Program-made: the position numbers and the translations under genes
Notes under the pieces: generated by a model
The model's database searches: none
Seen by the model: the letters and a program-made list of their open reading frames with translations, nothing else
Told to the model about the DNA's origin: nothing
Part shown: positions 1-28,457 of the stretch, piece by piece
Position numbering within the stretch: position 1 is the first letter of the stretch
Layout of the letters: every line of letters starts with the position of its first letter
Assembly (NCBI RefSeq): GCF_026965535.1
Contig: NZ_CP114039.1
Location: 8,163,461 to 8,227,460 of the forward strand
Reading direction: 5' to 3'
From: Corallococcus sp. NCRR
Lineage (GTDB): Bacteria; Myxococcota; Myxococcia; Myxococcales; Myxococcaceae
DNA length: 64,000 bases

Positions 1-140
1 AAGGGCTACGGCCTGGCGACGGTGGGCGCCATCTGCGCGATGTACACGCTGACGCCCGGCTGTTTCATTGGCGTGCCGGTGGCGGTGTGGATGCTCTTCA
101 CGCTGCGCCGTGACGGCGTGCGCGAGGCCTTCGCACCATG
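1..140 (+). CDS. 3' end of an upstream ORF (hydrophobic C-terminus); partial, start outside window
   Basis: Frame-1 translation KGYGLATVGAICAMYTLTPGCFIGVPVAVWMLFTLRRDGVREAFAP runs into TGA at 138-140 and overlaps the ATG of the next gene (ATGA). Not in the ORF track because it is under 60 aa. Confidence 0.3.
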
Positions 141-1193
141 AACCCGCGCGCCGTCCGCACGGTGCGTTTCCTGCTCACGGGCCTGGGCAACGTGGGCGTG
201 CCGCTCTTGGAGATCCTCCAGTCTCGCGCGTCGCTCCTGATGGAGCGCTACCGGCTGGAGCTGCTGCCGGTGGGACTGGCGGACTCGGGCGGCGCGGCGG
301 TGTCGCCGCATGGGTTGGACCTCGGGGCGGTGCTCGCGGTGAAGCGGGCGCGGCACTCCGTGGCGTCGCTGCCGGTGGTGGGGCGGCCGGGGATGAGCGG
401 GCGCGACCTGGTGCGCGAGGTGAAGGCGGACCTCCTGTTGGAGGCCACGCCCACGAGCTTCCAGGACGGGCAGCCCGGGTTGGACATCACGCGGGACGCG
501 CTGATGCGGGGCATGGCGGCGGTGCTCGCGAGCAAGGGGCCGCTGGTGCTGGGGTTCCGGGAGCTGGCTTCCTTGAGCGACCTGGAGTCGCCGGGCCGAC
601 CTCCCCTGCGCTTCAGCGCGGCGGTGGGCGCGTCGATGCCGCTGGTGAACGTGGGCCGCAGGGATCTGGCGCTGGGGAAGCTGGGCCGGTTCGAGGGCGT
701 GCTCAACAGCACCAGCCACCTGCTCTTGTGCCGCATGGCGGAGGGCAGGACGTACGAGGCCGCGCTGGCGGAGGCGCAGGCGCTGGGCATCGCGGAGACG
801 GACCCGACGCTGGACGTGGACGGCTGGGACACGGCGGGCAAGCTGGTCATCCTGGCCAACGCGGTGATGCGCGTGCCCACGACGCTGAAGGACGTGTCCG
901 TGACGGGGATGCGAGGCGTGACGCGCGCGGACCTGGACGCGGCGAAGGCGAAGGGCGGCCAGGTGCTGCTGCTGGCGCGCGGCGAGCCCGTGGGCGCGGA
1001 GAAGTGGGAGTGGAGCGTGCGGCCCACCGCCGTGGACGCGTCCCATCCCCTGGCCCGGCTGGGCGCGATGGAGATGGGCGCGGTGTTCCGCAGTGATTTG
1101 CACGGCGTGAACACCGTCATCAACGGTGAGCAGGGCGCGCGGGGCACGGGCGCGGCGATGTTGAAGGACGTGCTCGAAATCTTTCCGGACTGA
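138..1193 (+). CDS. hom: homoserine dehydrogenase (short form, no ACT domain)
   Basis: 351-aa ORF. N-terminal Rossmann motif LTGLGNVG. DVDGWDTAGKLVILANAV matches the conserved Hom catalytic-domain signature (D.DG.D.A.K..ILA). High GC3 codon usage. Confidence 0.8.
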   Translation: MNPRAVRTVRFLLTGLGNVGVPLLEILQSRASLLMERYRLELLPVGLADSGGAAVSPHGLDLGAVLAVKRARHSVASLPVVGRPGMSGRDLVREVKADLLLEATPTSFQDGQPGLDITRDALMRGMAAVLASKGPLVLGFRELASLSDLESPGRPPLRFSAAVGASMPLVNVGRRDLALGKLGRFEGVLNSTSHLLLCRMAEGRTYEAALAEAQALGIAETDPTLDVDGWDTAGKLVILANAVMRVPTTLKDVSVTGMRGVTRADLDAAKAKGGQVLLLARGEPVGAEKWEWSVRPTAVDASHPLARLGAMEMGAVFRSDLHGVNTVINGEQGARGTGAAMLKDVLEIFPD

Positions 1194-1294
1194 GGGACGG
1201 GGCATCACGGGACTCGGGGTGGATGTGCGAAGCTCCTGGGTCCCACCGGCGTGGACCCGACACGCCGTTCCCCCCGAGGTGCACCGTGAAGCTG

Positions 1295-1585
1295 ATGCGA
1301 CGCTCCGTCCTCCCGAAGATGGCTTCCCTCCTGATGTTGTTCGCGGCGCCCGCCTTCGCGGTGGAAGACACCCAGGTTTCCTCGGTGCAGGCGCCCGTCG
1401 AGGAGGGAGATACGTGCTCCGTCTGCGGCCCTGCTCCCTGCTGCGTGGTGCTCTGGACGGCGTGGTGCGGCTGCCCGTTCGCCAGCACCGCCAGCGTCGA
1501 GACTGAAGCCCCCGCGGAGGAGCTCCTGGCGTGTGCGCCCCAGAGCCAGCCGCGGACGGCTCCCGAGCAGAGCCAGTCGCTGTAG
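1295..1585 (+). CDS. small secreted cysteine-rich protein (about 97 aa)
   Basis: MRRSVLPKMASLLMLFAAPAFA is a signal-peptide-like N-terminus (start ATG about 1295, upstream GTG also possible). Mature part has 8 Cys (CSVCGPAPCCVVLWTAWCGCPF). No homolog recognised. Confidence 0.4.
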   Translation: MRRSVLPKMASLLMLFAAPAFAVEDTQVSSVQAPVEEGDTCSVCGPAPCCVVLWTAWCGCPFASTASVETEAPAEELLACAPQSQPRTAPEQSQSL

Positions 1586-1634
1586 TTCCTGTCCGCGCGG
1601 CCCCCGGACGGAACAGGTCCGGGGGCGTCGCACC

Positions 1635-2591
1635 TCATCCGCGAGTCGCGGCCAGGAGCCGCGTCAGGAGCGGCGCCACCAGTTCCTCGCCGCGTAGCTG
1701 GGAACGCCAGCGGTGCGGAATGCCGTTCACGCCGAAGATGAGTCCCGCGATGCCGCCCGCCACGCAGGCCGTGGTGTCCGTGTCGTGGCCCAGCCGGATG
1801 GCGGATTTGACGATCTCTTCGTAGGTCTTCCCGTTCGCGACGCAGGCCCGTGCGGAGCGCAGGCAATCCACGACATAGCCTCCGCCCGTCCCCGGTGCCG
1901 GGTCATCCGGGCGGATGTGGGCTTCCAGTTCTTCCCGCTGTGGGAAGCCCTCCACGTACAGGTCGCGGAACGTGGCCACGGCGTCGGCCCAGGGGTCCGC
2001 CGCGCCTTCCAGAATGCGGCGGGCCCAAAGGCAGTACAGCGCGCAGCAAACCTGGGCGCGCACATGGCCATGCGTGACGCGAGACTGCGCCATGGCATCC
2101 GATACGAGCGCCGCGTCCTTGCCCTTGTGCCACAGGGCCAATGGCAACACACGCATCAGTGAGCCATTGCCATTGTCCATCGTGCCGTTGGGGCCCGCGA
2201 GCATCGCCGGCGTGCCGTCACGCAACCGGCGCAGGGCAGTGCTGGTCTGGATGCCCACGTCGAACACGTCGCCGTCCACGGCGAGGTAACCCCAGTCCTG
2301 CCAGTTCACCAGCCGCCGGCCCAGGTCCTCGCAGTCGAGCCGCTTCTGATACGTCAGCGAGTCCAGGAGGCACAGCGCATGGGCGCCATCGTCCGACCAG
2401 GTGCCCGGGGGGACCCTGTCATGCGCGCGGTTGAAGCCCGGCGGCGGGTCGTACTCGATGGCCTCCGGAGCTGGGATTTGCTCCGGCCGATGGAACTCGT
2501 AGGGCACCCCGAGCGCATCGCCAATGAGCAATCCATACACCCCTCCCGCAATGCGCTCCTCGCGACTCACCATGTCCCAGCCTCCCAGCAT
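1635..2591 (-). CDS. ADP-ribosylglycohydrolase family protein (ARH/DraG-like)
   Basis: 318 aa. Motifs typical of the ARH fold: GGVYGLLIGDALGVPYEF near the N-terminus, TWSDDGAHALCL, and HDTDTTACVAGGIAGLIFG near the C-terminus (metal-binding Asp/Thr clusters). Sits 34 bp downstream of the caspase-like/HTH gene on the same strand. Confidence 0.8.
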   Translation of the reverse strand: MLGGWDMVSREERIAGGVYGLLIGDALGVPYEFHRPEQIPAPEAIEYDPPPGFNRAHDRVPPGTWSDDGAHALCLLDSLTYQKRLDCEDLGRRLVNWQDWGYLAVDGDVFDVGIQTSTALRRLRDGTPAMLAGPNGTMDNGNGSLMRVLPLALWHKGKDAALVSDAMAQSRVTHGHVRAQVCCALYCLWARRILEGAADPWADAVATFRDLYVEGFPQREELEAHIRPDDPAPGTGGGYVVDCLRSARACVANGKTYEEIVKSAIRLGHDTDTTACVAGGIAGLIFGVNGIPHRWRSQLRGEELVAPLLTRLLAATRG

Positions 2592-2625
2592 AGTGTACCA
2601 TGGACACCATCGACGTGTCTTGGTC

Positions 2626-4296
2626 TCACTTGGGAGGTGGCGGGAACTGGTCCGCCAGGGCTTTCATGCCGGCCTCCATGTAGACCCGCTTCCACCGGAG
2701 CAGGTCTTCCACGGGCACACCCGCTCGCCGGGCCACGTCGCCTTCGTACTCTGTTCCGGCGAGCAGGCGGATGACGGCGTCGGCCATGCCGCCGGCTCCT
2801 GCGAGGTCCCTGCCAGGCGGGAGGGTCTCCGGTCGTGCCAAGGACATCGTCGTCACGGATCCAGCGAGTGGCAGCCGGACCGCGGGATCCCCCAGCAGGA
2901 TGTATCCCGCGAGGTCATGCCTCAGCATCCACAGGTGCGCGAGGTCCACGGGATTCACCGCGCTGTCTCGCCCCGAGCGGCGCGCGAACTCCTCCTGATC
3001 ATAGAGCGTCGTCAGCTCCATGTTGGCCAGGTTGAAGGAGCGAAGGAGCGCGCTCAACCCCACTCCGGCTCGGCTGCCTTCCACCAGGGAGCTCAGCAGG
3101 CCCATGAAGCGCGACGGCCGGTCGCGGGCCAGGCAGGTCATGTCCTGGAACGAATAGGTCCAGGCCAGGTCCACGTGCCCCATCACCGCCAGCGGGCCCT
3201 GGGGATTGGCGAGCGCGGCCTGGGGCAGCGCGGCGACAAAGGGACGCTCGCCCTCGCGCGGAAGTGATTCCAGCAATCGCTCGAGCCGGCCTGGGTACTC
3301 ACCCGCCTCGCGCAACCGCGACAACCACGCGTGATAGGCACTGCGAGAGGGCGTGCCCGCGCTGAAACAGGCGAAGTAGAACCAGAAGCCCCCTGGGAGA
3401 AAGGCGGTGGAGGCCAGGTCCGACGCCTCCAGCGTCCCCTGCCCTCCCAGGCTCATGGCCCCCTGGCGCGCGCGCTGCTCCCCCACGGAAGCCCAACCCC
3501 GACGCGGGGCGCCCAGCCCATGGCTCAGGGTGAAGAGCATGGAGGGATGCGGCGACGCCACCTGTCCGAGCAATTCCCCCAGCGACCAGGCCCCGGGCTC
3601 ACCGAGCTCACATGGGACCTCCGCGCGAAGAAGGCCCTCCTCCTGCCGCGTGCGGAGGCTCCTGAAACTGGGGGCCATCAGCGCCTGATAGCCCACGGTG
3701 GTCGCGGGCGTTCCATCGTGGGCCGTGAAGAGGAGCGTGCGGGCCCGCTGCTCGGGCGCGGGCGTGCGACTCCAACGCAACACCTTGTCCACATAGGCCT
3801 CATAGCCCGCGTCCGAACCAAAGGTGAGCCGGCCCGTGAAGCCTCCCGCGCCGAGCATCTGCTGAAGCTCGAAGGACACCTGGTCGAAGTCGCCCAGCAT
3901 CAACAGGAAGGCGGGCTGCTCCGTCTCGGACGCGTCCTCGTCGCGCAGCACGGAGTCCATCCACCGGACCGCCTGGATCCCATCCATCCCCGGGGGAACG
4001 CGATACACGCGCACCGGTGCGCCCTGCTCCTCCGCACGCAGTGCGCACAGAGGAGCGATGAGGGCCAGCAGCCGGTCCCCCAGCGGCCCTTCGGGGACCA
4101 CCACCCCCCAACGTTGGTCTGGCAATGAATTGGGGTCCCGGTCCGGGCGGAGCAGCACGTCCTCGGATGAGGCCCTCCCCGCCTCCTCCCGAGGCGCCTC
4201 GGGCCGAGGCTGATGGGAGGCCGCATCCAGGGGGAGGGCTTCCTCCAGCACCGGCCGGCGGTCATTGGCGTGGCTCAACAGCAGTTCGAAGTCCAT
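2626..4296 (-). CDS. caspase-like (CHAT/peptidase C14-type His-Cys dyad) protein with C-terminal helix-turn-helix
   Basis: 556 aa from ATG at 4294-4296 (MDFELLLSH; the track ORF extends further 5' but overlaps the promoter elements). Candidate catalytic His in LFTLSHGLG (aa ~259) and Cys in FWFYFACFSAG (aa ~310), in caspase order. C-terminal GDVARRAGVPVEDLLRWKRVYMEAG resembles IS3/HTH_23-type DNA-binding helices. Confidence 0.55.
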   Translation of the reverse strand: MDFELLLSHANDRRPVLEEALPLDAASHQPRPEAPREEAGRASSEDVLLRPDRDPNSLPDQRWGVVVPEGPLGDRLLALIAPLCALRAEEQGAPVRVYRVPPGMDGIQAVRWMDSVLRDEDASETEQPAFLLMLGDFDQVSFELQQMLGAGGFTGRLTFGSDAGYEAYVDKVLRWSRTPAPEQRARTLLFTAHDGTPATTVGYQALMAPSFRSLRTRQEEGLLRAEVPCELGEPGAWSLGELLGQVASPHPSMLFTLSHGLGAPRRGWASVGEQRARQGAMSLGGQGTLEASDLASTAFLPGGFWFYFACFSAGTPSRSAYHAWLSRLREAGEYPGRLERLLESLPREGERPFVAALPQAALANPQGPLAVMGHVDLAWTYSFQDMTCLARDRPSRFMGLLSSLVEGSRAGVGLSALLRSFNLANMELTTLYDQEEFARRSGRDSAVNPVDLAHLWMLRHDLAGYILLGDPAVRLPLAGSVTTMSLARPETLPPGRDLAGAGGMADAVIRLLAGTEYEGDVARRAGVPVEDLLRWKRVYMEAGMKALADQFPPPPK

Positions 4297-4310
4297 GCGA
4301 CAGGGTCCCT

Positions 4311-4326
4311 TGCCACTTCCCTGCCA
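4311..4326 (-). promoter_or_regulatory. candidate sigma-54 (-24/-12) promoter for the caspase-like/HTH + ARH operon
   Basis: Minus-strand reading TGGCAG-ggaag-TGGCA (GG-N10-GC spacing). Only ~13 nt to the annotated ATG, so either the TSS is at the start codon or this element is weaker than the others. Confidence 0.3.
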
Positions 4327-4369
4327 CCCGGCTCGCGGCCCGGGTCCTCCAGGCCGTCTGGCTTCTTTT

Positions 4370-4399
4370 GACGCGCAAATACCTGTCACTGACGCGTCA
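4370..4399. promoter_or_regulatory. 10-mer array D (TGACGCGCAA ... TGACGCGTCA, 20-bp phasing): putative enhancer/UAS
   Basis: TGACGCGCAA at 4370-4379 and the palindromic TGACGCGTCA at 4390-4399, with CTGTCAC between. Same 10-mer family as arrays at 8641, 28521 and 30326. Lies ~45 bp upstream of the GG-N10-GC element. Confidence 0.45.
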
Positions 4400-4695: not shown

Positions 4696-7600
4696 ATGCA
4701 TGAGAGGTACGAGGAAGAGCTGCGCGTCGCGCAAGCCCGGGGAGTGGTGTCCCCCGAGGAGGCCGAAGCGCTGCTCGCGGAGGGTCGGCGCGCGGGACGC
4801 GACCCTCTGGCGCGCCTCGTGGAGGACGGCGTGATCTCCGAGGAGACACTCGCCGCGATCCGGGCCACGGCGCGCGATGAGGTGACGCCTCATGTCCCGC
4901 CTCCCGCCCCCCTGGAGCAGGCGAGGGAAACGCCTCCGCAGGCCGACGGCACCACCTTCACCCGCCACCCCAGCCCCGAGGCGGCGCAGCCTCCGGCGCA
5001 AGAGCCGGCCTTCCCCGTCCCGGGCTGGGAGCGGTACCAGCCCGTGCGCTTCCTGGGACAGGGCGGCATGGGCCGGGTCTATCTGGCGTACGACCCGCTG
5101 CTGCGGCGCCACGTCGCGCTCAAGTTCGTGCGGGGCGAGGACCCCGAGCTCGTGCGCCGCTTCGGCGCCGAGGCCCAGGCCCAGGCCCGCGTGGAACATG
5201 AGAGGGTTTGCAAGGTGTATGAAGTGGGCGAGGTCCGGGGCCAGCCCTTCATCGCCATGCAGTACATCCAGGGACGGCCCCTGCTGGAGGTGGCCCGGGA
5301 GCTCTCCGTGGAGCAGACGGTGAAGGTGGTGCAGCAGGCCACCGAGGGCGTGCACGCGGCCCACCGCGCCGGACTCATCCACCGTGACATCAAGCCCTCC
5401 AACATCCTCGTCGAGCGCGGCGAGGATGGGCAGTGGAAGCCCTACGTCATGGACTTCGGGCTGGCGCGTGACTGGCAGCGGGAGCACACCGTCACCGGCA
5501 CGGTCCTGGGCACCGTGCATTACATGGCCCCCGAGCAGGCCCGCGGCGATGTGCATCAACTGGACAGGCGCGCGGATGTCTACAGCCTCGGCGCCACGCT
5601 CTATGTCCTGCTCACGGGCAAGACGCCCATCCCGGGGAACAACAACCTGGAGGTGCTCGCGAAGCTGGCCACGCAGGATCCGCGCCCGCTGCGCGAGCTG
5701 AACAAGAACGTCCCCTCGGACCTGGAGGCCATCGTCCTCAAGTGCCTGGAGCGCGAACCCGCGGCTCGGTACGACTCGGCGCGGGCGCTGTCCGAGGACC
5801 TGGAGCGATTCCTCAACGGGGAGCCCGTGAAGGCCCGCGCGGTGGGCCACTGGTACCGGCTGCGCAAGCGGGCTCGCAAGCACCGGGCGCTCGTCGCCAT
5901 GGCCTCGGTGACGCTGGTGCTGGTGTGTCTGGCCATGGGCCAGGTGGTGCTCACCCGCCGGCACCTGGGCATGCGCGAGAACCTGGCGCGCCGCTTCGCC
6001 GAGCTGTCGTCGGAGGTCGAATACAACGCCCGGCTCATGACCATCAGCCGCCTGCACGACACGAGCGCCGAGCGGCAGCTCCTGCGTGAGAAGCTGAAGG
6101 ACATTGAACGGGAGATGCAGGCGGGCGGCGAGCCGGCCCTGGGCCCCGGGCACTATGCGCTGGGAAAGGGCTGGCTGGATCTGGGCGAGCCCGCCAGGGC
6201 CCGCGAACACCTGGAGGCCGCCTGGCAGTCTGGCTTCCAGCAGCCGCGCGTCGCCTCCGCGATGAGCCTGGCCCTGGGCCAGCTCTACAACCTCCAACTG
6301 CGCGGCGAACAGCTCGCGGGGGATCAGCTGCTGGGCGCACCCGCGCCGGAGCAGCTCAAGGCCCGCCGCGACGAGCTGGCGCGGCGGTACCGGGACCCGG
6401 CGCTCTTCTGGCTGCGCCAGAGCCAGGACGCGCTCGTCCTTCCCGCCGAGTACATGTCCGCGCTCCTGGCCTTCTACGAGGAGCGCTCCGACGAGGCCCT
6501 GCTCCGGCTCGACGCGCTCGGCCAGCGGCTGCCCTGGTTCTACGAAGCCCTCAAGCTGCGGGGCGACATCCTCTTCCGGCGCGCGATGGTGCGTTGGGAT
6601 GGCGGCGGACGCACGCCGGAGGAGCGCGCACTGGTCCAGGCCGACCTGGAAGCAGCCCGCCGGAGCTACGTCCAGGTCGCGGACACCGCCCAGAGCTGGC
6701 CCGAGGCGCACTACGCGCTCGCCGCCGTGGAGGTGGAGGCGATCTCCATGGACCTCTACGACGCGCAGGCGCGCGCGGAGCATGCCCGGCGCGCGTTCGA
6801 GCACCTCGCGCGCGCACTCAAGGCCGCGCCGGACCATGCCCCGTCCTGGGCCCTGCAGGCCACGCTCCACCGGAACCTCGCCCGCCTGGGGCCGGCCACC
6901 GACGCGGAGGCGTCGCTGCGCAAGGCGACGGACTCGGCCCGACGCGCCCTGGAGCTCGCCCCCTCGAACCTGCTGGCGCGCAAGGAGCTGGGCATGGACC
7001 TCTGGGCCCTGGCCGCGCATCGCCAGTCACAGGGGTTGGATCCGCGCGAGGCGCTCGCGAAGGCCCTCGAAGTCCTGGAGAGCGTCGCCCCCGCGGACCG
7101 GGACTATTACATCCACCATGCGCTGGCCCTCACGTTCATGACCTGGGCGGACCACGAGGAGCAGCTCCACCTGGACGCCCGGGACCACCGCGACAGGGCC
7201 ATTGAAGCCTTTCAGAAGGTGCTCGGTCTCGCGGGCCGATACCAGGCGGCATGGAACAACCTGGCCGCGCAGTACTACCAGCGCGCCTCGGCCCCGGGTG
7301 CGCTCACGGTGGACGAGGATCTGGGCCAGGCCGAGCAGGCGCTGAAGAAGAGCCTGGCGCTCAATCCCCGGAGCGTGGCGGCCCACTTCCAGACCGGCCG
7401 GCTCCAGCTGTTCCGGGCCCAGCGCCTGCGTGACAGGGACGCGGATCCGCGCCCGGCGTTGGCGGCGGTGCGCGAAGCCTGCCGGTTGGGATTGGCCATC
7501 AACCCCCGGATCGAGAACTTCTCCTTCCTCGAAGGTCTGGCGTTCATGGACGAGGCCCGGGACGCCTGGGAACGCGGCGAGTCTCCCCTCCCCCTGATTG

Positions 7601-8259
7601 AGCAGGCGCGGCACTCCTTCGAGAGGGCCCGCTCCGTGGCGCCCGAGAGCGCCGACGCCTACAACAACCTCTCGCACCTGCATGCGACGGGCGCCGTGTA
7701 TCAGCAAGCGCTGGGGCAGGACCCATCGCCGAGCCTTCAGGCCGCGGTGCAGGCGTCCCGAGAGGCCCTGAAGCGAGCCCCCGAGCAGTGCCTCGCCCTG
7801 AGCAACCTGGGACGTGCCCTGCGCCTCCAGGCAACGGCCTTGATGGACACCCGGAGGGACCCGGGCGTCCCCCTGTCCAAGGCCCTGGGGGCCCTTCAAC
7901 AGGCCATCGCGCATGCCCCCGGCGACAAGGACGCCACGCTCTATCTGGCGGAGGCCCAGGCGCTCCGGGCCCGTTGGCGGAAGGCGGACAGGGATTTCGA
8001 GGAGGCGGCTCGAACGTATCAGTCGGCCCTCTCACTGAGCGGTGGCTCCCTGGACTTCCGCCTGGCGCTGGCCCACTTCTATCGGGAATGGGCCGCGTGG
8101 AGGCAGCAGTCCGGTCTGGACGCGAGCGGTCTCATCGAACAGGGACTGCTGCGGGTGGGTGAGGTCCTGGAGGCCCGCCCCTCCTGGGCCGAGGCCCAGG
8201 CCCTGCGGGCGAATCTTCAGCTGCTCCAGAACCCATTCCGCGCGGAGTCGGTCCGGTAA
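4696..8259 (+). CDS. Ser/Thr protein kinase with transmembrane segment and long TPR-like C-terminal region
   Basis: 1187 aa. Hanks kinase motifs GQGGMGRVY, VALK, HRDIKPSNIL, DFGLA, APE. Hydrophobic segment ALVAMASVTLVLVCLAMGQVVL after the kinase domain. Remainder is alpha-helical repeat-rich (TPR-like). Confidence 0.9.
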   Translation: MHERYEEELRVAQARGVVSPEEAEALLAEGRRAGRDPLARLVEDGVISEETLAAIRATARDEVTPHVPPPAPLEQARETPPQADGTTFTRHPSPEAAQPPAQEPAFPVPGWERYQPVRFLGQGGMGRVYLAYDPLLRRHVALKFVRGEDPELVRRFGAEAQAQARVEHERVCKVYEVGEVRGQPFIAMQYIQGRPLLEVARELSVEQTVKVVQQATEGVHAAHRAGLIHRDIKPSNILVERGEDGQWKPYVMDFGLARDWQREHTVTGTVLGTVHYMAPEQARGDVHQLDRRADVYSLGATLYVLLTGKTPIPGNNNLEVLAKLATQDPRPLRELNKNVPSDLEAIVLKCLEREPAARYDSARALSEDLERFLNGEPVKARAVGHWYRLRKRARKHRALVAMASVTLVLVCLAMGQVVLTRRHLGMRENLARRFAELSSEVEYNARLMTISRLHDTSAERQLLREKLKDIEREMQAGGEPALGPGHYALGKGWLDLGEPARAREHLEAAWQSGFQQPRVASAMSLALGQLYNLQLRGEQLAGDQLLGAPAPEQLKARRDELARRYRDPALFWLRQSQDALVLPAEYMSALLAFYEERSDEALLRLDALGQRLPWFYEALKLRGDILFRRAMVRWDGGGRTPEERALVQADLEAARRSYVQVADTAQSWPEAHYALAAVEVEAISMDLYDAQARAEHARRAFEHLARALKAAPDHAPSWALQATLHRNLARLGPATDAEASLRKATDSARRALELAPSNLLARKELGMDLWALAAHRQSQGLDPREALAKALEVLESVAPADRDYYIHHALALTFMTWADHEEQLHLDARDHRDRAIEAFQKVLGLAGRYQAAWNNLAAQYYQRASAPGALTVDEDLGQAEQALKKSLALNPRSVAAHFQTGRLQLFRAQRLRDRDADPRPALAAVREACRLGLAINPRIENFSFLEGLAFMDEARDAWERGESPLPLIEQARHSFERARSVAPESADAYNNLSHLHATGAVYQQALGQDPSPSLQAAVQASREALKRAPEQCLALSNLGRALRLQATALMDTRRDPGVPLSKALGALQQAIAHAPGDKDATLYLAEAQALRARWRKADRDFEEAARTYQSALSLSGGSLDFRLALAHFYREWAAWRQQSGLDASGLIEQGLLRVGEVLEARPSWAEAQALRANLQLLQNPFRAESVR

Positions 8260-8268
8260 AAACAGACA

Positions 8269-8299
8269 GGGGCACGGCGTCGTTTGAACGCCGTGCCCC
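8269..8299. terminator. GC-rich hairpin between convergent genes (putative bidirectional intrinsic terminator)
   Basis: GGGGCACGGCG-tcgtttgaa-CGCCGTGCCCC is an 11-bp perfect stem. It starts 10 nt after the kinase TAA and ~20 nt from the stop of the convergent small ORF. No U-tract, which is common in high-GC genomes. Confidence 0.5.
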
Positions 8300-8318: not shown

Positions 8319-8519
8319 TCACGGCTGGTACACGGACCCCGCGAAGCCTTCGATCTTGGGGTTGGTGGTATCCGTGACGTTGCCGGCGGTGCCGGTGTCG
8401 TCATCGTCGAAAGGCAGGGGCTTGCGCTGGACCGGGGCGCGCGCGGGCGGGGGCGGAACGGGCGCGGGGGGCTGCTCGCGGTCCTGAGAGGGATTGCACT
8501 GCATTTCGGGTCGACTCAT
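8319..8519 (-). CDS. small hypothetical protein (67 aa), Pro-rich N-terminus, acidic DDDD patch
   Basis: MSRPEMQCNPSQDREQPPAPVPPPPARAPVQRKPLPFDDDDTGTAGNVTDTTNPKIEGFAGSVYQP. GAGG Shine-Dalgarno 8 nt upstream of the ATG. The longer track ORF (to 8597) would overlap its own sigma-54 promoter, so the downstream ATG is preferred. Confidence 0.3.
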   Translation of the reverse strand: MSRPEMQCNPSQDREQPPAPVPPPPARAPVQRKPLPFDDDDTGTAGNVTDTTNPKIEGFAGSVYQP

Positions 8520-8585: not shown

Positions 8586-8601
8586 AGCAATGCGCATGCC
8601 G
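8586..8601 (-). promoter_or_regulatory. candidate sigma-54 promoter (GGCAT-N5-TTGCT)
   Basis: Minus-strand reading cGGCATGcgcaTTGCTgaa fits the TGGCAC-N5-TTGCW consensus (GG and GC exactly 10 nt apart). Lies 40 bp downstream of array C and ~65 nt upstream of the small-ORF ATG. Confidence 0.5.
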
Positions 8602-8640: not shown

Positions 8641-8690
8641 TTGCGCGTCAGCGCTGACGCTTGCGCGTCAACTGGCGCGCAAGCGCGTCA
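8641..8690. promoter_or_regulatory. 10-mer array C: three TTGCGCGTCA-type units at exact 20-bp phasing (putative sigma-54 enhancer/UAS)
   Basis: TTGCGCGTCA at 8641-8650, TTGCGCGTCA at 8661-8670, aaGCGCGTCA at 8681-8690. Inverted half copies (GCTGACGC, GCGCGC) sit between them, giving the local palindrome GCGCGTCAGCGCTGACGC. The array overlaps the stop codon of the EBP gene. Confidence 0.5.
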
Positions 8691-10322
8691 GTCCTCCTCC
8701 AGCCCCAGCTCCCGGACACGCCGCTGGAGCGCGCGAACGGAGACCTCCAGGCGCTGGGACATCAGCTCCAGGTCGCCCTTGCAGTCGCGGTAGCTCTCGC
8801 GGATCTGCTCGACGCTCAGGTCCTTGGCCGTGCGGGCCTGGGAGCTCTTCTTCATCAGGTTGTAGAGCGAGGCGCGGGTGATGCCGAGCTGGTTCGACGC
8901 GGCCGCCAGGTCCCAGCCGTGTTCGCGCAGCGCGATCATCATCTCCTCCTCGGAGACTTCGGAGGGCTTGCGGCGCGACTCCACCGGCGCCTTCTCGGGG
9001 GATGCGGGGACCGGGATGGGAGCAATCAGCTCCTTCTCCAGTTGGGGATCCACCTGGAGGCTCGGCTGGCCCCGGCTGCTGATGATGAGCTGGCGCGTGA
9101 CGTTGCGCAGCTGCCGGATGTTGCCGGGCCACGGGTGGCGCACCAGGCGGGACGCCAGCGACGTCGGCAGCCAGGGCTCGGCCGAGGGGTCGGGATCCTC
9201 CAGCCGCCAGCGCTCTCCGAGCGCCTCCAGCTCCAGCCGGGCGAAGTGCATCAAGAGGAGGCCCAGGTCCTCGCGGCGCTCGCGCAAGGGGGGAAGCTGG
9301 ATGCCGTACCCCGCCAGCCGGTGCATGAGCGGCGCCTTGAAGGTTCCCTGCTGGATCTGCACCTCCAGGTGCGCATCCGTGGCGGCCACCAGCCGCACGT
9401 TGAGCTTCACGGGGGTGCGGCTGCCCACCGGATACATCTCGCCGGTCTCCAGCACCCTCAGGAGCAGCGCCTGCACCTCGGGGGAGGCCTCGGCCACCTC
9501 GTCCAGGAAGAGCGTGCCTCCCTGGGCGGCGCGGAAGAAGCCCTCGCGGGACTGGGTGGCCCCCGTGTAGGCGCCACGCTCGGCGCCGAAGAGCTCGGCG
9601 GCGGCCAGCTCCTTGGGGATGGAGCCCAGGTTCACGCTGATGAAGGGGCCCTTCTGCCGGCGGCCGTGCTGGTGGAGCGCGCGTGCCACCAGCTCCTTGC
9701 CCGTGCCCGTCTCGCCCCGGATGAGCACCGGCACGTCCAGGTCCGCCACTTGCAAAACCTGTCGGCGCACGCGGCGGACGGCCGCGCTCTGCCCCACCAT
9801 GCCCAGCTCATCCGCTTCCGTCTTCTCGACGGGCTCCACCAGATGGAGCAGCAACACCACGCGCTCGGCCAGCTCCAGCGTGACGCCCAAAGCCAACGCC
9901 TGGGGGCTCAATTCGCGCTCACCGGAAAGAGGCTCTCCGTCCACGAGCACCGGTGAGCTGCTCCCCGCAACCAGCCGCACCCCGCCGGAGCGTCCCGGGA
10001 CCAGGCGCAACGGCTTGCGGCTCAGGAAGGGGTCCGCCAGCGGCAGCCCCAGGAGGGAGCCGGGGCGCGCGAAGTTCGGCTCCGTGCGGGAGAGGGCCAC
10101 CTCCCGGCCCGTCAGGAGCTCGCGGAGCAACACCTGCTCGCCGCTGCGCTGGATCTTCAGGTGGGAGATCAGGGTCAGGGCAGGAACAAGGCCTGCCGCC
10201 GCCGGAGCGCCGTGCCGCGGCTGCCGGGTGAGCGTGGAGATGTCTTCCAACGAGTGCCCTCCGCTTTGTGCGCCGCCGTCACACAGACCGCTCGACCAGT
10301 ACTTCAACGGCCTGTCCCCCAT
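8688..10322 (-). CDS. sigma-54-dependent transcriptional activator (bEBP) with N-terminal FHA-like domain and C-terminal HTH
   Basis: Central AAA+ sigma-54 interaction domain: Walker A GETGTGKE, GAFTGA-loop variant ERGAYTGAT, ELFG, DEV, RQLRNV arginine finger region. N-terminal VLVDGEPLSGEREL / LRLVPGRSGGVRLV looks FHA-like. C-terminal NQLGITRASLYNLMKK is a Fis-type HTH. Start is uncertain (track ORF to 10361; MGDRP at ~10322). Confidence 0.85.
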   Translation of the reverse strand: MGDRPLKYWSSGLCDGGAQSGGHSLEDISTLTRQPRHGAPAAAGLVPALTLISHLKIQRSGEQVLLRELLTGREVALSRTEPNFARPGSLLGLPLADPFLSRKPLRLVPGRSGGVRLVAGSSSPVLVDGEPLSGERELSPQALALGVTLELAERVVLLLHLVEPVEKTEADELGMVGQSAAVRRVRRQVLQVADLDVPVLIRGETGTGKELVARALHQHGRRQKGPFISVNLGSIPKELAAAELFGAERGAYTGATQSREGFFRAAQGGTLFLDEVAEASPEVQALLLRVLETGEMYPVGSRTPVKLNVRLVAATDAHLEVQIQQGTFKAPLMHRLAGYGIQLPPLRERREDLGLLLMHFARLELEALGERWRLEDPDPSAEPWLPTSLASRLVRHPWPGNIRQLRNVTRQLIISSRGQPSLQVDPQLEKELIAPIPVPASPEKAPVESRRKPSEVSEEEMMIALREHGWDLAAASNQLGITRASLYNLMKKSSQARTAKDLSVEQIRESYRDCKGDLELMSQRLEVSVRALQRRVRELGLEED

Positions 10323-10349
10323 CAAGCCGTCTTCGTCCGAGGCCCCTCC

Positions 10350-11255
10350 ATGAAATCCCAAATCTCACATGCAGTGTGGCCGGGGTCCGCGAGCGCCCTG
10401 GTGCTCGCGCTCCTGATGACGTCCTCGGCGGTGGCGCAAGAAGGCCCGGAGGGGTTCAGGGTCGGGGTGCCCGTGACCCAGAACCCATACGTCACGGCGG
10501 TCGCCACCCTCTATGAGCAGACCCGGTACGAGGAGGCGCTCTCCAAGGTGGAGAAGGCGCTCGAATGGCCCACCAACGGTCCGCGCGAGGTGCTCTTCCT
10601 CAAGCTGATGAAAGGCGTGCTCCAGGCGGAGCTTGGCCAGGGCGGCGCGCTGGAGTCCTTCAACGAGGCCCTGGCGCTGGACGCGCAGGCCGCGCTGCCC
10701 GTCCGTCCGTCCTGGCGATTGCGCAAGCTCTTCGAGCAGGCACGCAACTCCGTGGGCCTCGCCGTGAACGAGGAGCAGCTGACCGAGGATTGGGAGCCAA
10801 GTCTTGTCCCGTGGATTCCTCCCCCCAGGCGGCTGGGGCTGAGCGTGAGCCTGCGCGGCGAGGTGGATGTGCTGGGGCTCGGCACCGCCTTCACCGGGAC
10901 TCCGGCCGTGGGTGTGAACTACAGCTGGGAGCGCGAAGGCTGCGCGCTGACGCTGCTGACGCAGGCCTCCCCCGGGCTCAGGGCCGAGGTGCAGTTCCAT
11001 CCGCTCCTCATGGGATGGGTTCGGCCCTACGCCAGGGCCGGCACCACAGCGTTCTTTCGCGTGAGGAATGAACAAGGGGACGGCCACACCTTCCTGGGGG
11101 GGATGAGCGGCCGGGTGGCCGCCGGGCTGGATTGGCAGTGGAGCTCCAGGATGTATGCCTTTTCAGAAGTGGCCTACGAACGCTTCGTCATCGGCTCCGA
11201 TCGCTACAGGCCGGACTCGGTGCTGTTCTCATTGGGCGTGGGGCTGTTTCCCTGA
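10350..11255 (+). CDS. secreted hypothetical protein (signal peptide)
   Basis: MKSQISHAVWPGSASALVLALLMTSSAVAQ is a signal peptide with an AxA cleavage site, followed by a 270-aa domain of unknown function. Divergent from the EBP gene. Confidence 0.5.
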   Translation: MKSQISHAVWPGSASALVLALLMTSSAVAQEGPEGFRVGVPVTQNPYVTAVATLYEQTRYEEALSKVEKALEWPTNGPREVLFLKLMKGVLQAELGQGGALESFNEALALDAQAALPVRPSWRLRKLFEQARNSVGLAVNEEQLTEDWEPSLVPWIPPPRRLGLSVSLRGEVDVLGLGTAFTGTPAVGVNYSWEREGCALTLLTQASPGLRAEVQFHPLLMGWVRPYARAGTTAFFRVRNEQGDGHTFLGGMSGRVAAGLDWQWSSRMYAFSEVAYERFVIGSDRYRPDSVLFSLGVGLFP

Positions 11256-11288: not shown

Positions 11289-14200
11289 ATGTTCTCACCA
11301 TCAAGAATCGCAGCAGAATCAATCTCAAGAATCATCATCCTCTCAACCCTGATGCACCTGGCATGCGGGACACCGCCGGGTCAGGGCGAAGCACTGCACA
11401 CGAAGGAGATGGCCGCACCCCTCCAGGCCGCGGGCGATGGGTCGTGGAGCGTCACGGGCGCCATGACCACGGCTCGCTACAATCACACTGCAACGCTATT
11501 GCCTTCAGGCAAGGTGCTGGTCACGGGAGGGAATGCGTCCCGCGAAATGCCCTCCTTTGAAGCGATCCTCGACAGCGCGGAGTGGTACGACCCGGCTACG
11601 GGGACGTGGAGCCTGACCAGGCCAATGGCTACGGCCCGCGTGGGCCACACGGCGACGCTGCTGCCTTCGGGCAAGGTGTTGGTTTCCGGAGGCGAGAACC
11701 TCTTTAACGGCACTCTCAAAAGCGCGCAGTTGTACGACCCGGATACGGGAAGGTGGAGTTCGACAGGGTCAATGGTCAGTGCTCGTTACGACCACACGGC
11801 AACGTTATTGCCTTCAGGCAAGGTGCTGGTCTCTGGAGGCAGCGGTCGAGTCAGCGAAGCACTCAGCAGCGCGGAAGTGTACGACCCAGTTACAGAGAAG
11901 TGGACCGTGACGGGCTCGATGGCCTCGCACCGCGCTTTGCACAAAGCAACACGGCTCCTTTCAGGCAAGGTGCTGGTCACCGGAGCTGCGGCGGCGGAGA
12001 TATACGACCCGGATACGGGGAAGTGGAGTCAAACCGAGCCAATAAACACGGCGCGCTACGAGCACGCCGCAGTGCTGTTGCCCTCAGGCAATGTGCTGGT
12101 TTCTGGTGGCTGTTGCTATATCACCAGCGCGGAGGTCTACAACCCGGAGACCGGGAAGTGGAGCACAACGGGCTCTCTGGCCATCGACCGTTATGACCAC
12201 GCGAACGAGTTATTACCCACGGGCCTCGTGCTGGCCGCTGGCGGTGACAATATCGAAAGCGCGGAACTCTATGACCCCACCGCAGGGACCTGGCACCCCG
12301 TTGGCTCAATGATCACGACTCGCAGGCGTCATACGGCGACGCTGTTGCGCTCAGGCAAGGTGCTTATCGCCGGAGGCTTTGACTTCCTGACAGGTTCACT
12401 CTCCAGCGCAGAGCTATACAATGCATCCACTTCAGCGGTCACCAATCCATCCAATGGGTTATCAACCAGCAGCAACCGACCTGCTTATCGGGGGCTGGTG
12501 GGACTAGTCAGCGCCGTCACAGTGATTGTGGACGGGGTCCCGGTTGGCACCACGAATGCCAATACCTTGGGTGAGTGGACCCTCAATCAACCTGTCGCTC
12601 TGCGAGACGGCTACCACACGGTGATGGCACGAGTCATCGATGCAGTGGACAACGCCCCTGTCGACTCGATCAGCAACTTTTTCTTGGTGGATGCCACCCC
12701 ACCGGCGCCCCCTGTGCTCACGACTCCTGTCGCCAATTCCATGACCAGTGGCCAACCAACATATAGCGGGACAGCGGAGGCCAGGAGCACCGTCATCGTG
12801 ATTGTAAACGGCATCTTGGCGGGAGCCACGATGGCCGACATCACAGGGAGGTGGAGTTTCGTGCCGCCCACGCGCCTGCCGGATGGCAACCACAGGGTGT
12901 ATGCACGAGCGATGGATACGGTCGGCAACACCGGCATCTATTCGAACACCCATTTCTTCACGGTGGATGCCACTCCTCCAATCGCCCCGGAAATCACCAT
13001 TCCTTCCAATGGACTCATAACCAACAACAACGAGCCAACCTACAGCGGTTCGGCGGAGGCATTCAGTACCGTCGCCGTGTTCGTGGACGGAGTTCAGGTC
13101 GACAATACGAGGGCCGATACCGCAGGAAAGTGGACCCTGACGCAGCCTGGAGCGCTGCAGGACGGCAGTCACGTGGTGAAGGCACGAGCGACGGATGCCG
13201 TTGGCAACACGAGTGCCGAATCGAACATCCGCGGTTTCATGGTGGATACCATCCCGCCAACTGCTCCGGAAATCATCGCTCCTTCCAACGGATTGATGAT
13301 CCACAACAACCGTCCCACCTATAGCGGGCAAGCAGAGCCAGCCAGCAGCGTCATTGTGTTCGTGGACGGATTCCAGATTGGCGCCACGACTCCCAACGTT
13401 TCAGGGGAATGGAGCATCTTGCAGCCTGATGCTTTGCAGGACGGAAGCCATCAGGTGCAGGCACGAGCGATGGACGCCGCCGGCAATACCGGCATCAATC
13501 CCAGGACCCATGCTTTCACAGTGGACACCCGCCCTCCGGCAACTCCAGAAATCACATTTCCCATTACCGGAATGACAACCAACATCCGCCTGCCAACCTA
13601 TATCGGCCTGGCCGAAGAGGGCAGCACTGTCACCGTGTTCGTGGACGGAGAGCCGATCGGCGACATGAAAGCCGATACTTCGGGGCGGTGGAGAATCACC
13701 CAACCTGAGACCTTGCAGGACGGCAGCCATCTGGTGAAGGCACGAGCAATGGATGCAGTTGGCAACGCCAGTGCCGATTCGAAGACCCACGCTTTCACAG
13801 TCGATGCCGCCCCTCCGGCTGCTCCAGGAATCATCACTCCCGCAAATGGATCGGCCTCCAACAACTCCCGACCGTTCTATCGTGGTGTGGCAGAGGTAGC
13901 CAGCCTCGTGACCGTGTTCGTGGATGGGGTTCAGCTTGGCAGCACGGCGGCTACGACCTCGGGCGAGTGGAGCCTCGCACAGCCTGAGGCATTGCAGGAC
14001 GGCAGCCATATGGTGAAGGCACACGCAATGGATGCAGTCGGCAACAGCAGCGCTGAGTCCAAAACCCACGTGTTCGTCGTGGATGCAACGCCTCCGATCG
14101 CACCCGAGATCACCACTCCGTCAGCCGGATTGACCATCCGCGACAACCAACCCACCTTTAGCGGTCTGGCGGAGGCTGGCAGCACCGTCGCCGTGCTCGT

Positions 14201-23175: not shown

Positions 23176-23193
23176 GGCGGGTCCGCTCCCGGG

Positions 23194-24738
23194 TCAGGCC
23201 ACGAGCAACCGCTCCCGGAAGTAGCGGCGGTACAGCTCACAGCGCGGCAGCACGGCGGTCCCCTCCTGGCGCACCAGCCCCGCGCTCCTCAGACGGATGA
23301 ACACATCTTCGCTCGTACAGGCGCCGCGCTGGAGCACCTCGCGAAGCCCGGCCTTGAGCTGTGATTGGCTGCTCAGCCGGAAGAGCAGGTTGCGCAGGTG
23401 GTCTCCGAACGGCCCCCGGTCCTCCGCCACCTGGGAGAAGAGCTCCGCCACGCCCAGGCTGCCGCTGGCCACCAGGTACAGGGCCTTGCGGACGAGGTAG
23501 GGATGCCCTCCCAACAGGGTGAAGAGCTCCTGGGCCTGCTGCGCGCTCAACGGCGAGCCATGCCGCTGGTTGAGGTCCACCACCTGCGCCGCGGCGAAGT
23601 CGTCCAGCTCCACGGTCTGCCCCACGTTGAAGGGCGACTGCGTCATGTTCTTGATGAAGAGGAAGGGCTCCGTCGAGGTGACCAGGACGATGCTGAGCTT
23701 CTTCCACACCGGCGTGGTGGGCAGCGCGCGGTTGTTGTGCCAGCTGCGCAGCATGCCGAAGAAGTCCGTGCCGAAGGGAATCTCGAAGAGGGTCTCCACT
23801 TCGTCCAATCCCAGCACCAGCGGCGCATCCAACGACCGCAGGATGTGGCCGCTCATGTAAAGGCCGCAGCGCTGGCTGCTGCCCATGGGCTTCTGCCAGT
23901 ACGCCTCCACCTGGTCGGTGAGGCCGAGTTGCTCCCCCAGCGAGCTGCAGAAGCGCTGGAAGAAGAGATCCGGATTGCGGAGCGAGCTGGAGTCGAACTC
24001 CTGGAGCGACAGGTAGGCCACGCGCTTGCCCGCGGTGAGCGCGCCCGCCATGCCCCGCATGAGCAGGGAGCTCTTGCCCATCTGCCGGGCGCCCTTGATG
24101 GTGATGGTCGCCCCCTGCTTGTGCGCGACTGCCTTCATCACCGTCGCGTCCGCACCACGCACGACATAGAAGGCCGACTGGGTGTCCATGGCGCCCTCCA
24201 GGGGCTCGTCCAGTTCGAGCGGTGCCGAAGGAAGCGGCGGCCGCAGCGGAGGGGACGCGGGTTCGGCGGGTGGCACGTCGCGGGAGGCCGGCTTCGTGGC
24301 GGGCAGCGCGGATTCGGGCAGCGCGGATCCGCTCATGGCCCGGGCGAGCTGTTCGAGCAGCCGCGGGGTGTCCTCGGGCCCCTCCCAGAGCGCCCAGTTG
24401 ATGGGGCCCAGGTAGCTGCTCAGGGGCGATGGAAGCCGTTCGTGGTACGCGACCCGGATGGGGAGGAGGACGGGCTTGCCGTACTGCGCATGCTGCTGAT
24501 GCGCCAGCTCGATCTCCATGCGCGCCATCTCGCTGTTGACGGAGAACGGCGACAGCAGCGTGATGAAGAAGTCCGCCTGGCGGATCTCCGCGCCAATCCG
24601 CTCCGCCCACCGTTCACCCACCACCATGGAGGTGTCGATGAACACCTCGTGGGACGCCTGGAGCGCCCGGTAGAGGGCATTGGAGAGGTCCTGGTCCGGC
24701 GTGACGTCGCGCTTGTAACTGATGAAGACACGGGCCAT
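23194..24738 (-). CDS. TIR domain + AAA-like NTPase protein
   Basis: 514 aa from ATG at 24736-24738. N-terminal MARVFISYKRDVTPDQDLSNALYRAL...VFIDTSMVVGERW...NSEMARMEIELA is a TIR fold (FISYxR, catalytic-Glu-like WxxxE context). Central KGARQMGKSSLL P-loop and DEVETLFEIPFGTDFFGMLRSWHN (AAA-like / PF14516-type). The track ORF extends 40 codons further 5', which is rejected because TIR domains are N-terminal. Confidence 0.8.
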   Translation of the reverse strand: MARVFISYKRDVTPDQDLSNALYRALQASHEVFIDTSMVVGERWAERIGAEIRQADFFITLLSPFSVNSEMARMEIELAHQQHAQYGKPVLLPIRVAYHERLPSPLSSYLGPINWALWEGPEDTPRLLEQLARAMSGSALPESALPATKPASRDVPPAEPASPPLRPPLPSAPLELDEPLEGAMDTQSAFYVVRGADATVMKAVAHKQGATITIKGARQMGKSSLLMRGMAGALTAGKRVAYLSLQEFDSSSLRNPDLFFQRFCSSLGEQLGLTDQVEAYWQKPMGSSQRCGLYMSGHILRSLDAPLVLGLDEVETLFEIPFGTDFFGMLRSWHNNRALPTTPVWKKLSIVLVTSTEPFLFIKNMTQSPFNVGQTVELDDFAAAQVVDLNQRHGSPLSAQQAQELFTLLGGHPYLVRKALYLVASGSLGVAELFSQVAEDRGPFGDHLRNLLFRLSSQSQLKAGLREVLQRGACTSEDVFIRLRSAGLVRQEGTAVLPRCELYRRYFRERLLVA

Positions 24739-24752
24739 GGGGCTCTTTCCAG

Positions 24753-28427: not shown

Positions 28428-28457
28428 GCCGTCAGAGCCCCTTTCTCAGGCGCTAAG

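Follow-up and report, generated by a model that had tools for sequence, protein, structure and literature searches.

We analysed a 64,000-nucleotide stretch of DNA from Corallococcus sp. NCRR (contig NZ_CP114039.1, positions 8,163,461 to 8,227,460; hereafter the window), and in particular a gene on its minus strand that encodes a protein of 556 amino acids (Table 1). From its fold and motifs, this protein is predicted to be a cysteine protease of clan CD, family C25 (gingipain-type), and it carries a C-terminal helix-turn-helix (HTH). Because proteases of this family are encoded next to, overlapping or fused with CHAT proteases, often with a metallophosphoesterase following, we lean towards the reading that the protein would act as the second enzyme of a CHAT-initiated proteolytic relay, in an island that a Ser/Thr kinase, an enhancer-binding protein (EBP) and sigma-54 would regulate.

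PCaspase, type IV Thoeris and Craspase are examples of an emerging role for caspase-family proteases as executioners in bacterial immunity, and to our knowledge the characterised executioners are so far all of the C14 or CHAT type. What we find suggests that gingipain-type proteases of the cytoplasm form a large family, repeatedly CHAT-adjacent or CHAT-fused, and offers a candidate two-protease cascade together with a fusion of protease and transcription factor. The sole mention of the family in the papers that we searched is an uncharacterised operon member in Myxococcus xanthus. In the same papers we found no description of a systematic linkage of the C25-like family to CHAT proteases, or of the kinase/EBP/sigma-54 regulon and its TGACGCGTCA site.

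Protease domain and family assignment

An earlier note on this DNA had described the gene product as a caspase-like protease, of CHAT or C14 type, fused to an HTH and followed by a gene for an ADP-ribosylglycohydrolase (ARH). Both open reading frames (ORFs) exist as it described them, and their third-position G+C (GC3) of 0.81-0.83 supports coding status, in a window of about 70% G+C overall. The window protein is 100% identical to the NCBI entry 'MULTISPECIES: hypothetical protein [unclassified Corallococcus]'. The catalytic dyad that had been proposed, His259 (LSHG) and Cys310 (FACFSAG), held up, as both residues are invariant, along with Asp194 and a GDP motif at residues 469-471, among 20 homologues of 47-75% identity. 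We checked the catalytic segment of the gingipain RgpB in PDB chains 4ief and 1cvr, where ASAE152GG, YTGH211G, DVAC244 and VFGDPS have counterparts in the same order in the family (TAHD194GT, LSH259G, FAC310 and LLGDPA), an agreement at motif level only. A conserved His in His-Gly before a conserved Cys in Ala-Cys, with a conserved acidic third residue, is in keeping with family C25.

Profile searches point the same way at the level of the family. By itself, the window protein reaches 17.8 bits against Peptidase_C25 (PF01364), where the gathering cut-off is 23 bits, and 19 of the 20 family members match at E<=0.01 (best E 1.5e-8). In the PDB, neither a single-sequence nor a profile search brought up a significant match, the family profile finding RgpB weakly (E 0.18). 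In its AlphaFold2 model, which has a predicted local distance difference test (pLDDT) value of 80.4, the protein is predicted to adopt the gingipain-type two-subdomain alpha/beta (caspase-haemoglobinase) fold. Fold comparison values were highest for RgpB (26.2, with 300 residues aligned) and Kgp (25.3), followed by separase (~15), the CHAT proteins Csx29, SAVED-CHAT and DdvA (12-14), legumain (~11), and caspases and metacaspases (8-10). These values point away from both CHAT and C14 and to another family of clan CD, C25; the clan and the HTH fusion of the earlier proposal stand, and both families that it named give way. The window protein has neither a Pfam match to CHAT (PF12770) nor CHAT or separase as its best fold match, and shows neither the p20/p10 fold nor a sequence match to caspases and metacaspases of family C14, PCaspase included.

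Identity with the gingipains RgpB and Kgp of Porphyromonas gingivalis (C25; PDB 4ief, 1cvr, 4rbm) is only 13-15%, and it is the fold that is shared. As secreted virulence proteases, gingipains carry a large prodomain at the N-terminus, Ig-like domains and, at the C-terminus, a domain for type IX secretion. The window protein has only a short disordered leader, no signal sequence and an added HTH, and no residue in it obviously answers to the S1 residue of RgpB (Asp163 type). Neither the prodomain nor the type IX secretion domain of secreted gingipains was found in the window protein, the C-terminus of which is the HTH. Since its N-terminus (MDFELLLSHANDRRPVLEE, read from the translation) has no hydrophobic signal segment, the protein is presumably cytoplasmic. 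An exhaustive profile search places 1,323 clusters (50% identity, E<=1e-30) in the family, for which database names are generic only (C25 peptidase, gingipain domain, HTH domain). Looking up the exact sequences of the window protein and of the protein P0015 brought up no contig.

In the N-terminal motif of the leader, E4, L5, L6, L7, A10 and P15 are nearly invariant in the family alignment, and the model has pLDDT <50 throughout residues 1-45. The start codon is secure because these N-terminal residues are conserved family-wide. We also considered the N-terminal motif and the HTH as adaptors common to neighbouring proteins, in the style of effector-associated domains, and rejected this since both are restricted to the C25-like family; for the motif, all six-frame ORFs of the window and of 77 related loci were searched.

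Linker and C-terminal HTH

The C-terminal HTH of the earlier note is likewise upheld. It is modelled as three helices (501-513, 518-525 and 529-550), with block-mean pLDDT of 81-90 over residues 501-540, and follows a linker that is variable in length and highly gapped in the family alignment. Pfam HTH_28 matches 15 of the 20 family members (best E 8e-8). In the window protein itself, HTH_Tnp_1 matches the HTH fragment at E 6e-4 and 20.4 bits, under the cut-off of 24.1 bits, and the full protein at a sub-threshold 15.6 bits. Profile and model together describe a three-helix domain of HTH_28/IS3 type, and 59 of the 81 family genes in the related loci carry the HTH.

Linkage to CHAT proteases and other neighbours

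To survey the neighbours of the family, we took the 77 related loci with flanks of at most 8 kb per side, called and clustered their ORFs, and identified the recurrent ones with Pfam; CHAT genes were counted in 66 loci with a CHAT profile built in this analysis and a limit of 8 kb. A CHAT gene lies within this distance in 36 of the 66 loci and immediately adjacent in 21, with 18 same-strand pairs. At family level, then, CHAT and a second clan-CD protease are encoded together, and the CHAT partners are of three types. One is CHAT-nSTAND1-WD40, as in locus L028, where the CHAT-STAND gene directly follows and overlaps the C25-like gene and its product is 42% identical over 1,644 amino acids to the CHAT-nSTAND1-WD40 protein of the window. 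Another is CHAT-SAVED, the effector of cyclic-oligonucleotide-based anti-phage signalling (CBASS), beside a CD-NTase, and the last is a DdvA-like zf-HC2/TPR/CHAT anti-sigma factor with an extracytoplasmic function (ECF) sigma factor. In addition, the two proteases occur as single polypeptides in both domain orders, namely C25-like-CHAT-nSTAND1-WD40 (P0306), C25-like-CHAT-AAA_16 (P0395), C25-like-CHAT (P0326) and CHAT-nSTAND1-C25-like (P0338). The CHAT-fused forms that we scanned are without the HTH. Read as gene structures, the fusions would be Rosetta-stone evidence for a functional link, and some may be products of gene calling. In the window, the protease and CHAT genes share an island and a promoter cassette but are not adjacent.

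A calcineurin-like metallophosphoesterase is the other frequent partner. Among the eight closest relatives, five (L001, L002/L082, L004, L007 and L008) encode it directly 3' of the protease gene. Counted over the related loci, it is an immediate same-strand neighbour in 16 cases, and 26 of 81 family genes have it no more than three genes away. A further recurrent operon, in L013, L059, L066 and other Sorangium/Minicystis loci, consists of genes that we call c9 and c3, the metallophosphoesterase and the C25-like protease. The c9 protein has a C-terminal PG_binding_1 domain, and c3, of about 400 amino acids, has a Cys...His pattern that by eye is like NlpC/P60; this operon hints at cell-wall-directed effectors. 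Comparison of the window with these recurrent neighbours gave no homologue of the metallophosphoesterase, c3 or c9.

Promoter and predicted regulon

The earlier note had placed a repeat array (its array D) and a GG-N10-GC element upstream of the protease gene, behind the same enhancer motif and in one regulon with a TIR enzyme. Both elements are confirmed, and the gene has the enhancer motif and the sigma-54 promoter type in common with the TIR/CHAT operon of the window. The array consists of two 10-bp palindrome-like sites (4369-4378 and 4390-4399), 21 bp apart, which form a putative upstream activating sequence (UAS). When the intergenic region was aligned with three orthologous loci, it proved diverged nearly throughout except for these palindromes and the promoter, a conserved block TGGCA(G/A)GGAA(G/A)TGGCAA ending some 13 nt short of the ATG. 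Scanning all loci placed the promoter exactly at -29 and the palindromes at -112 and -90 in the five closest orthologues (L001-L005). On the alignments, such conservation at fixed distance amid diverged flanks is far in excess of chance. A similar arrangement exists in L068 (Polyangium), next to an EBP of 46% identity. The GC of the -12 element falls at -16/-15 from the ATG, which puts the predicted start some 3 nt ahead of the start codon, and the mRNA is predicted to be nearly leaderless. The other three cassettes of the window have ordinary leaders, and the protease cassette alone is predicted to be nearly leaderless.

The cassette, two or three palindromes and then GG-N10-GC, occurs four times in the window, before the protease gene, a 66-amino-acid ORF, the operon AAA_35-WD40/TIR-AAA_35/CHAT and an OmpA-like gene. 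Among the related loci, palindrome clusters are limited to those with the EBP lineage or to L004 and L005, the contigs of which end before the expected position of the EBP. The order EBP-kinase-protease is kept in L001-L003, where the EBP is 79-83% identical and kinase orthologues at the same position are 60-71% identical. The kinase has one hydrophobic span, ALVAMASVTLVLVCLAMGQVVL, read from the translation after the kinase domain, and a TPR-rich C-terminal part of about 770 amino acids. The N-terminus of the EBP is predicted to have a forkhead-associated (FHA) fold, too divergent for the Pfam FHA model. A GG-N10-GC conserved in position, inverted repeats upstream of it and an EBP nearby are together what would be expected of a sigma-54 promoter with a UAS, and the EBP is the likely candidate activator through the TGACGCGTCA sites. 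A defined regulon with so clear a predicted 10-bp operator would make the TIR and CHAT-STAND genes inducible and not constitutive. In M. xanthus, EBPs with FHA domains form a recognised class (Jelsbak et al. 2005, PMC549468, as cited in PMC12288465), which the present system resembles in its FHA-AAA+-HTH_8 architecture beside a Ser/Thr kinase, its sigma-54 promoters and its upstream palindromes.

Several smaller observations concern these regions. The cassettes and first codons before the AAA_35-WD40 gene (28400-28570) and the OmpA-like gene (30200-30370) are duplicated, with 127 of 177 positions identical. The 66-amino-acid ORF is acidic and proline-rich, with a triple TGACGCGCAA-type UAS (8641-8682), a sigma-54 promoter (8586-8601) and a hairpin/T-run terminator (~8258-8299) in common with the convergent kinase gene; it and the same cassette are also found in L082 and L001, and it may serve the module as a small regulator, an inhibitor or a substrate. 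A direct repeat, GCGACAGGGT, with three copies and a count of 6 against 1 expected, was tried as an enhancer of the protease gene and rejected, since it was derived post hoc and is not conserved in the orthologues. A scan for sigma-70 promoters found nothing.

Comparison with characterised systems

A published counterpart is in M. xanthus, where the DdvS-DdvA operon, in a CBASS/CRISPR-Cas island, lists 'a putative C25-type peptidase' (PMC11506125), for which that paper reports no function. The layout of the Myxococcus sp. locus L041 (ECF sigma factor, DdvA-like TPR-CHAT anti-sigma factor, 232-amino-acid protein, C25-like protease, CHAT-SAVED, CD-NTase and E1/E2) matches the published gene list, and its C25-like protein is 49% identical to the window protein. 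Likened through L041 and the gene list, the C25-type peptidase of the DdvS-DdvA operon is evidently of the same protein family as the window protease. The DdvS-DdvA-type subfamily is without the HTH (470 amino acids) and driven by an ECF sigma factor, whereas the window gene has sigma-54 and an EBP.

In the type III-B CRISPR system of Haliangium ochraceum, a SAVED-CHAT protein activated by cA3 cleaves and activates PCaspase (10.1101/2023.06.23.546230; Science 2024), and other products of the cluster are a sigma factor, an inhibitor and a Ser/Thr kinase (10.1101/2023.06.23.546230). What the two have in common is a myxobacterial cluster that pairs CHAT with a further clan-CD protease and includes a transcription factor and a Ser/Thr kinase. 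However, the window is without a SAVED domain, a cyclase or CRISPR, and its transcription-factor element is fused to the protease and is not a separate sigma factor. PCaspase is annotated as C14 with H79/C146, and on that ground we rejected that our family is PCaspase itself; the window protease is analogous to it in logic and not homologous at family level.

Type IV Thoeris is a compact two-gene system in which the protease is activated by N7-cADPR (10.1101/2024.10.24.620036). It is similar in combining a TIR with a clan-CD protease, here in one regulon, the combination from which the earlier proposal set out. Unlike in Thoeris IV, the TIR of the window stands 19 kb away and is part of a fusion with an AAA_35 STAND module, and the protease in the TIR operon is a CHAT domain; no two-gene system of an adjacent TIR and caspase-like gene was found in the window. 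PADLOC gave a weak ThsB-like match for the TIR and none for the protease, and the C25-like sequence itself gives no sign of ligand binding.

The metallophosphoesterase neighbours recall protease-effector modules, in which site-specific cleavage unleashes latent effectors and a metallophosphoesterase is among the protease-associated modules (PMC12642450). The likeness to these modules is the order of protease and then metallophosphoesterase in the closest orthologues. The figure legend there gives the adjacent protease as trypsin; the available text has no C25, CHAT or helix-turn-helix, and in it the metallophosphoesterase module is uncharacterised.

The ADP-ribosylglycohydrolase gene and the island boundary

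That the gene following the protease encodes an ARH, as the earlier note stated, is well supported by PF03747 (2.8e-70, 287 of 287 profile positions) and by the motifs GTWSDD and GHDTDT. Its structural relatives in the PDB include 8za7, 2cwc, Tri1 (6dre) and DraG, and its scores do not reach the equivalog cut-offs that NCBIfam sets for Tri1 and DraG. The intergenic gap of 34 bp that had been reported applies if the ARH starts at ATG 2591; we favour ATG 2573, because it gives the orthologue length of 312 amino acids and has a GGGAGG Shine-Dalgarno sequence, and the gap is then 52 bp. The two genes were further thought to be partners in an operon, with the ARH reversing or processing the ADP-ribose signals of a TIR protein from the same regulon. 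This is an attractive reading, and we correct it here as wrong. The two genes are on the same strand, a scan found no T-run terminator between them (its four terminator-like matches are all elsewhere), the TIR-AAA_35 gene stands behind the same UAS/sigma-54 cassette, and the ARH family motifs and structure matches are as expected of such an enzyme. However, a tblastn search with the ARH protein found it in none of the 77 related protease loci, and the closest orthologues have the metallophosphoesterase in its place. ARH identity tracks taxonomy (C. exiguus 95%, C. terminator 80%, Pyxidicoccus 78%, M. xanthus 72%, Archangium ~70%, Stigmatella and Melittangium 65-67%), and the gene is always beside a cluster for MTHFR and glycine cleavage, in Corallococcus also beside homoserine dehydrogenase, whether or not a protease is present. 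Neither the palindromes nor GG-N10-GC is found upstream of the M. xanthus or Archangium ARH, and in C. exiguus the same ARH upstream sequence comes right after the OmpA-like gene. A functional operon of protease and ARH is very improbable on this evidence, and a loop of TIR and ARH in one regulon falls with it, the ARH being a bystander by synteny.

Comparison with C. exiguus defines the boundary. By blastn, its locus L080 matches the window in two blocks, 2-544 with 29135-28590 (the 3' end of the OmpA-like gene) and 558-3188 with 2623-1, separated by 13 bp, so that there the OmpA-like gene is joined directly to the ARH. It follows that window positions 2624-28589 are absent from C. exiguus, and that the ARH, with the ~50 bp upstream of it that the two genomes have in common, lies outside that block. 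The block of about 26 kb holds the genes for the protease-HTH, the kinase, the 66-amino-acid ORF, the EBP, two Kelch/Big_13 proteins, CHAT-nSTAND1-WD40, TIR-AAA_35 and AAA_35-WD40, and the protease gene is the last gene of this strain-variable DNA. The protein ends in ...ALADQFPPPPK where orthologues have ...ALAELRSLG, its last ~8 codons being unlike theirs and resembling the OmpA tail of C. exiguus (...PAPPPPQ); from these alignments, the island junction seems to run through the last codons of the protease gene. Both ends of the 2624-28589 indel carry a proline-codon tail (PPPPK-stop and PAPPLP-stop), which suggests microhomology at the junction. FolD and the ARH are ~34.5 kb apart in the window, against ~6 kb in Pyxidicoccus, ~1 kb in M. 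xanthus and ~0.9 kb in C. terminator (L078, L080, L083 and L084 were compared), and this variation marks the interval as a hotspot of variable content. As judged by synteny, the ARH is a vertically inherited, housekeeping-type gene flanking the FolD-ARH hotspot, and its adjacency to the protease gene is an accident of the island junction.

Co-transcription of the ARH by read-through from the protease gene is possible in this strain, though it would be no sign of a partnership. In the stem between the genes, the 3' end of the protease gene contributes CCUCCC and the ARH its Shine-Dalgarno GGGAGG; the stem has no T-run and may exert translational control on the ARH. In C. exiguus (L080 545-615), the corresponding stem uses CCUCC from the end of the OmpA gene.

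Proposed relay and alternatives

In the relay that we lean towards, the membrane Ser/Thr kinase would signal through phospho-threonine to the FHA-domain EBP, which would bind the palindromes and activate the sigma-54 promoters as one regulon. A sensor-coupled CHAT protease would then activate the C25-like protease, within a conflict or programmed-death system, and the activated protease would cut downstream targets. In the ancestral module, this target could have been a latent effector, the adjacent metallophosphoesterase. As for the HTH, it might hold the enzyme on DNA, or cleavage in the linker might free it as a transcriptional regulator.

Several points weigh against this interpretation. 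The CHAT gene of the window is 14 kb from the protease gene, the metallophosphoesterase is missing and the 3' end is altered, and the window copy of the protease could be a remnant, though it keeps all invariant residues and the promoter. Myxobacterial genomes are rich in CHAT genes, and our counts of CHAT proximity are raw. In myxobacteria, circuits of kinase, EBP and sigma-54 classically belong to development. PADLOC and NCBIfam contain no model for the protease family, the metallophosphoesterase or c3, and the upstream alignment gave no conserved candidate operator for the HTH near the promoter. The direction of the relay might be CHAT to C25 or C25 to CHAT.

The last point leads to a scheme in which the cascade is reversed or absent, with the C25-like protease activating a linked effector (the metallophosphoesterase, c3 or the PG-binding c9) and CHAT proteins as parallel effectors. 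The same-strand metallophosphoesterase neighbours, the c9-c3-metallophosphoesterase-C25 operons of Sorangium and Minicystis, and the protease-effector logic described in PMC12642450 argue for it; it leaves the fusions to CHAT-STAND unexplained, and the window has no homologue of any of these effectors, so that we hold it to be unlikely. It is quite doubtful that the protein is mainly a transcription factor, with the protease domain alone as a signal-responsive self-cleaving or sensor module in the manner of LexA/CI. Defence operons are often autoregulated by HTH-bearing components, the HTH is frequent in the family, and a flexible linker joins the two domains. However, about a quarter of the family and the CHAT-fused forms are without the HTH yet keep the catalytic set, there is no conserved operator-like repeat near the promoter besides the EBP sites, and the strong linkage to CHAT and metallophosphoesterase would be unexplained. 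A role in myxobacterial development, kin discrimination or envelope stress, and not in anti-phage immunity, strikes us as rather improbable. FHA-EBP/kinase/sigma-54 circuits are typical of M. xanthus development, the same cassette precedes an OmpA-family gene with weak TraB similarity, and no PADLOC model matches the protease; on the other hand, family members are found inside CBASS/CRISPR islands, and a strain-variable island with TIR and CHAT-STAND genes is typical of conflict systems.

Returning to the CHAT-initiated relay, a wider and more speculative proposal can be built on it, which we would sooner doubt than assert. Myxobacteria may have an unrecognised second type of prokaryotic protease cascade, in which CHAT proteases (linked to STAND, SAVED or anti-sigma modules) would act on a cytoplasmic gingipain-type executioner with its own DNA-binding domain. 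A single cleavage would set proteolysis free and at the same time release or withdraw a transcription factor, and in this lineage an arsenal of protease, TIR-STAND, CHAT-STAND and 66-amino-acid acidic peptide would be primed for transcription from the cell exterior through a receptor Ser/Thr kinase, an FHA-EBP and sigma-54.

Gene map and further observations

The gene map near the protease gene was built from GC3 and Pfam (Table 1).

Table 1. Positions of the protease gene, its parts, its predicted control elements and neighbouring features in the window.
Feature	Positions	Strand	Basis or remark
Homoserine dehydrogenase	138-1193	+	Pfam/GC3 map
Small Cys-rich ORF	1223-1585	+	Signal-peptide-like N-terminus, no Pfam match
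ARH, 312 amino acids from ATG 2573 (ORF to 2591)	1635-2573	-	PF03747; conserved flank gene outside island
Intergenic stem, protease gene/ARH	2574-2640	-	-33.1 kcal/mol, z -2.4
Island absent from C. exiguus, ~26 kb	2624-28589		blastn and junction alignment
C25-like protease with C-terminal HTH, 556 amino acids	2626-4296	-	Gene under study
C-terminal HTH, residues 501-550, ending in long helix	2647-2796	-	
Disordered linker, residues 479-500, protease to HTH	2797-2862	-	pLDDT <50 for 481-498
Protease domain, residues 56-478	2863-4131	-	Invariant columns, Peptidase_C25 matches
Cys310 codon (FACFSAG)	3367-3369	-	
His259 codon (LSHG)	3520-3522	-	
Asp194 codon	3715-3717	-	
N-terminal motif M-x-x-ELLL-x-HADD-x-RP-x-L, residues 1-18, in disordered leader (1-45)	4243-4296	-	
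Predicted sigma-54 (-24/-12) promoter TGGCAGGGAAGTGGCA, GG-N10-GC	4311-4326	-	Kept at -29 to -14 in L001-L005
Putative UAS, two TGACGCGTCA-type palindromes	4369-4399		Kept at -112/-90 in L001-L005
Ser/Thr kinase, divergently oriented, TPR-rich C-terminal part	4696-8259	+	Pkinase 8.4e-43, TPR families
66-amino-acid ORF, RKPLPFDDDD motif	8319-8519	-	With own triple UAS, sigma-54 promoter and terminator
Sigma-54 EBP (predicted FHA-fold N-terminus, AAA+, Fis-type HTH)	8688-10361	-	Candidate binder of TGACGCGTCA sites
Two Kelch/Big_13 genes	within 2624-28589		Pfam
Operon AAA_35-WD40/TIR-AAA_35/CHAT-nSTAND1-WD40	18496-28427	-	Pfam; triple UAS 28523-28554 and sigma-54 promoter 28458-28473
CHAT-nSTAND1-WD40 gene	18496-23175	-	
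TIR-AAA_35 gene	23194-24858	-	
OmpA-family gene	28582-30228	-	UAS copy ~30326-30359 and sigma-54 promoter 30262-30277
FolD	37157		

The small Cys-rich ORF sits between homoserine dehydrogenase and the ARH, and in C. exiguus a gene of 99 amino acids is called at the same place. The likeness of the OmpA-family protein to TraB (outer-membrane exchange) is weak and far below threshold, with an NCBIfam match of 1.1e-32 and 113 bits against a cut-off of 700. Two patches of low G+C stand out in the window, one at 34001-36401 (0.507), around a 712-amino-acid ORF (34263-36401) without a Pfam match, and the other at 12001-14000 (0.594), in a Kelch/Big_13 gene; their composition suggests recently acquired DNA.

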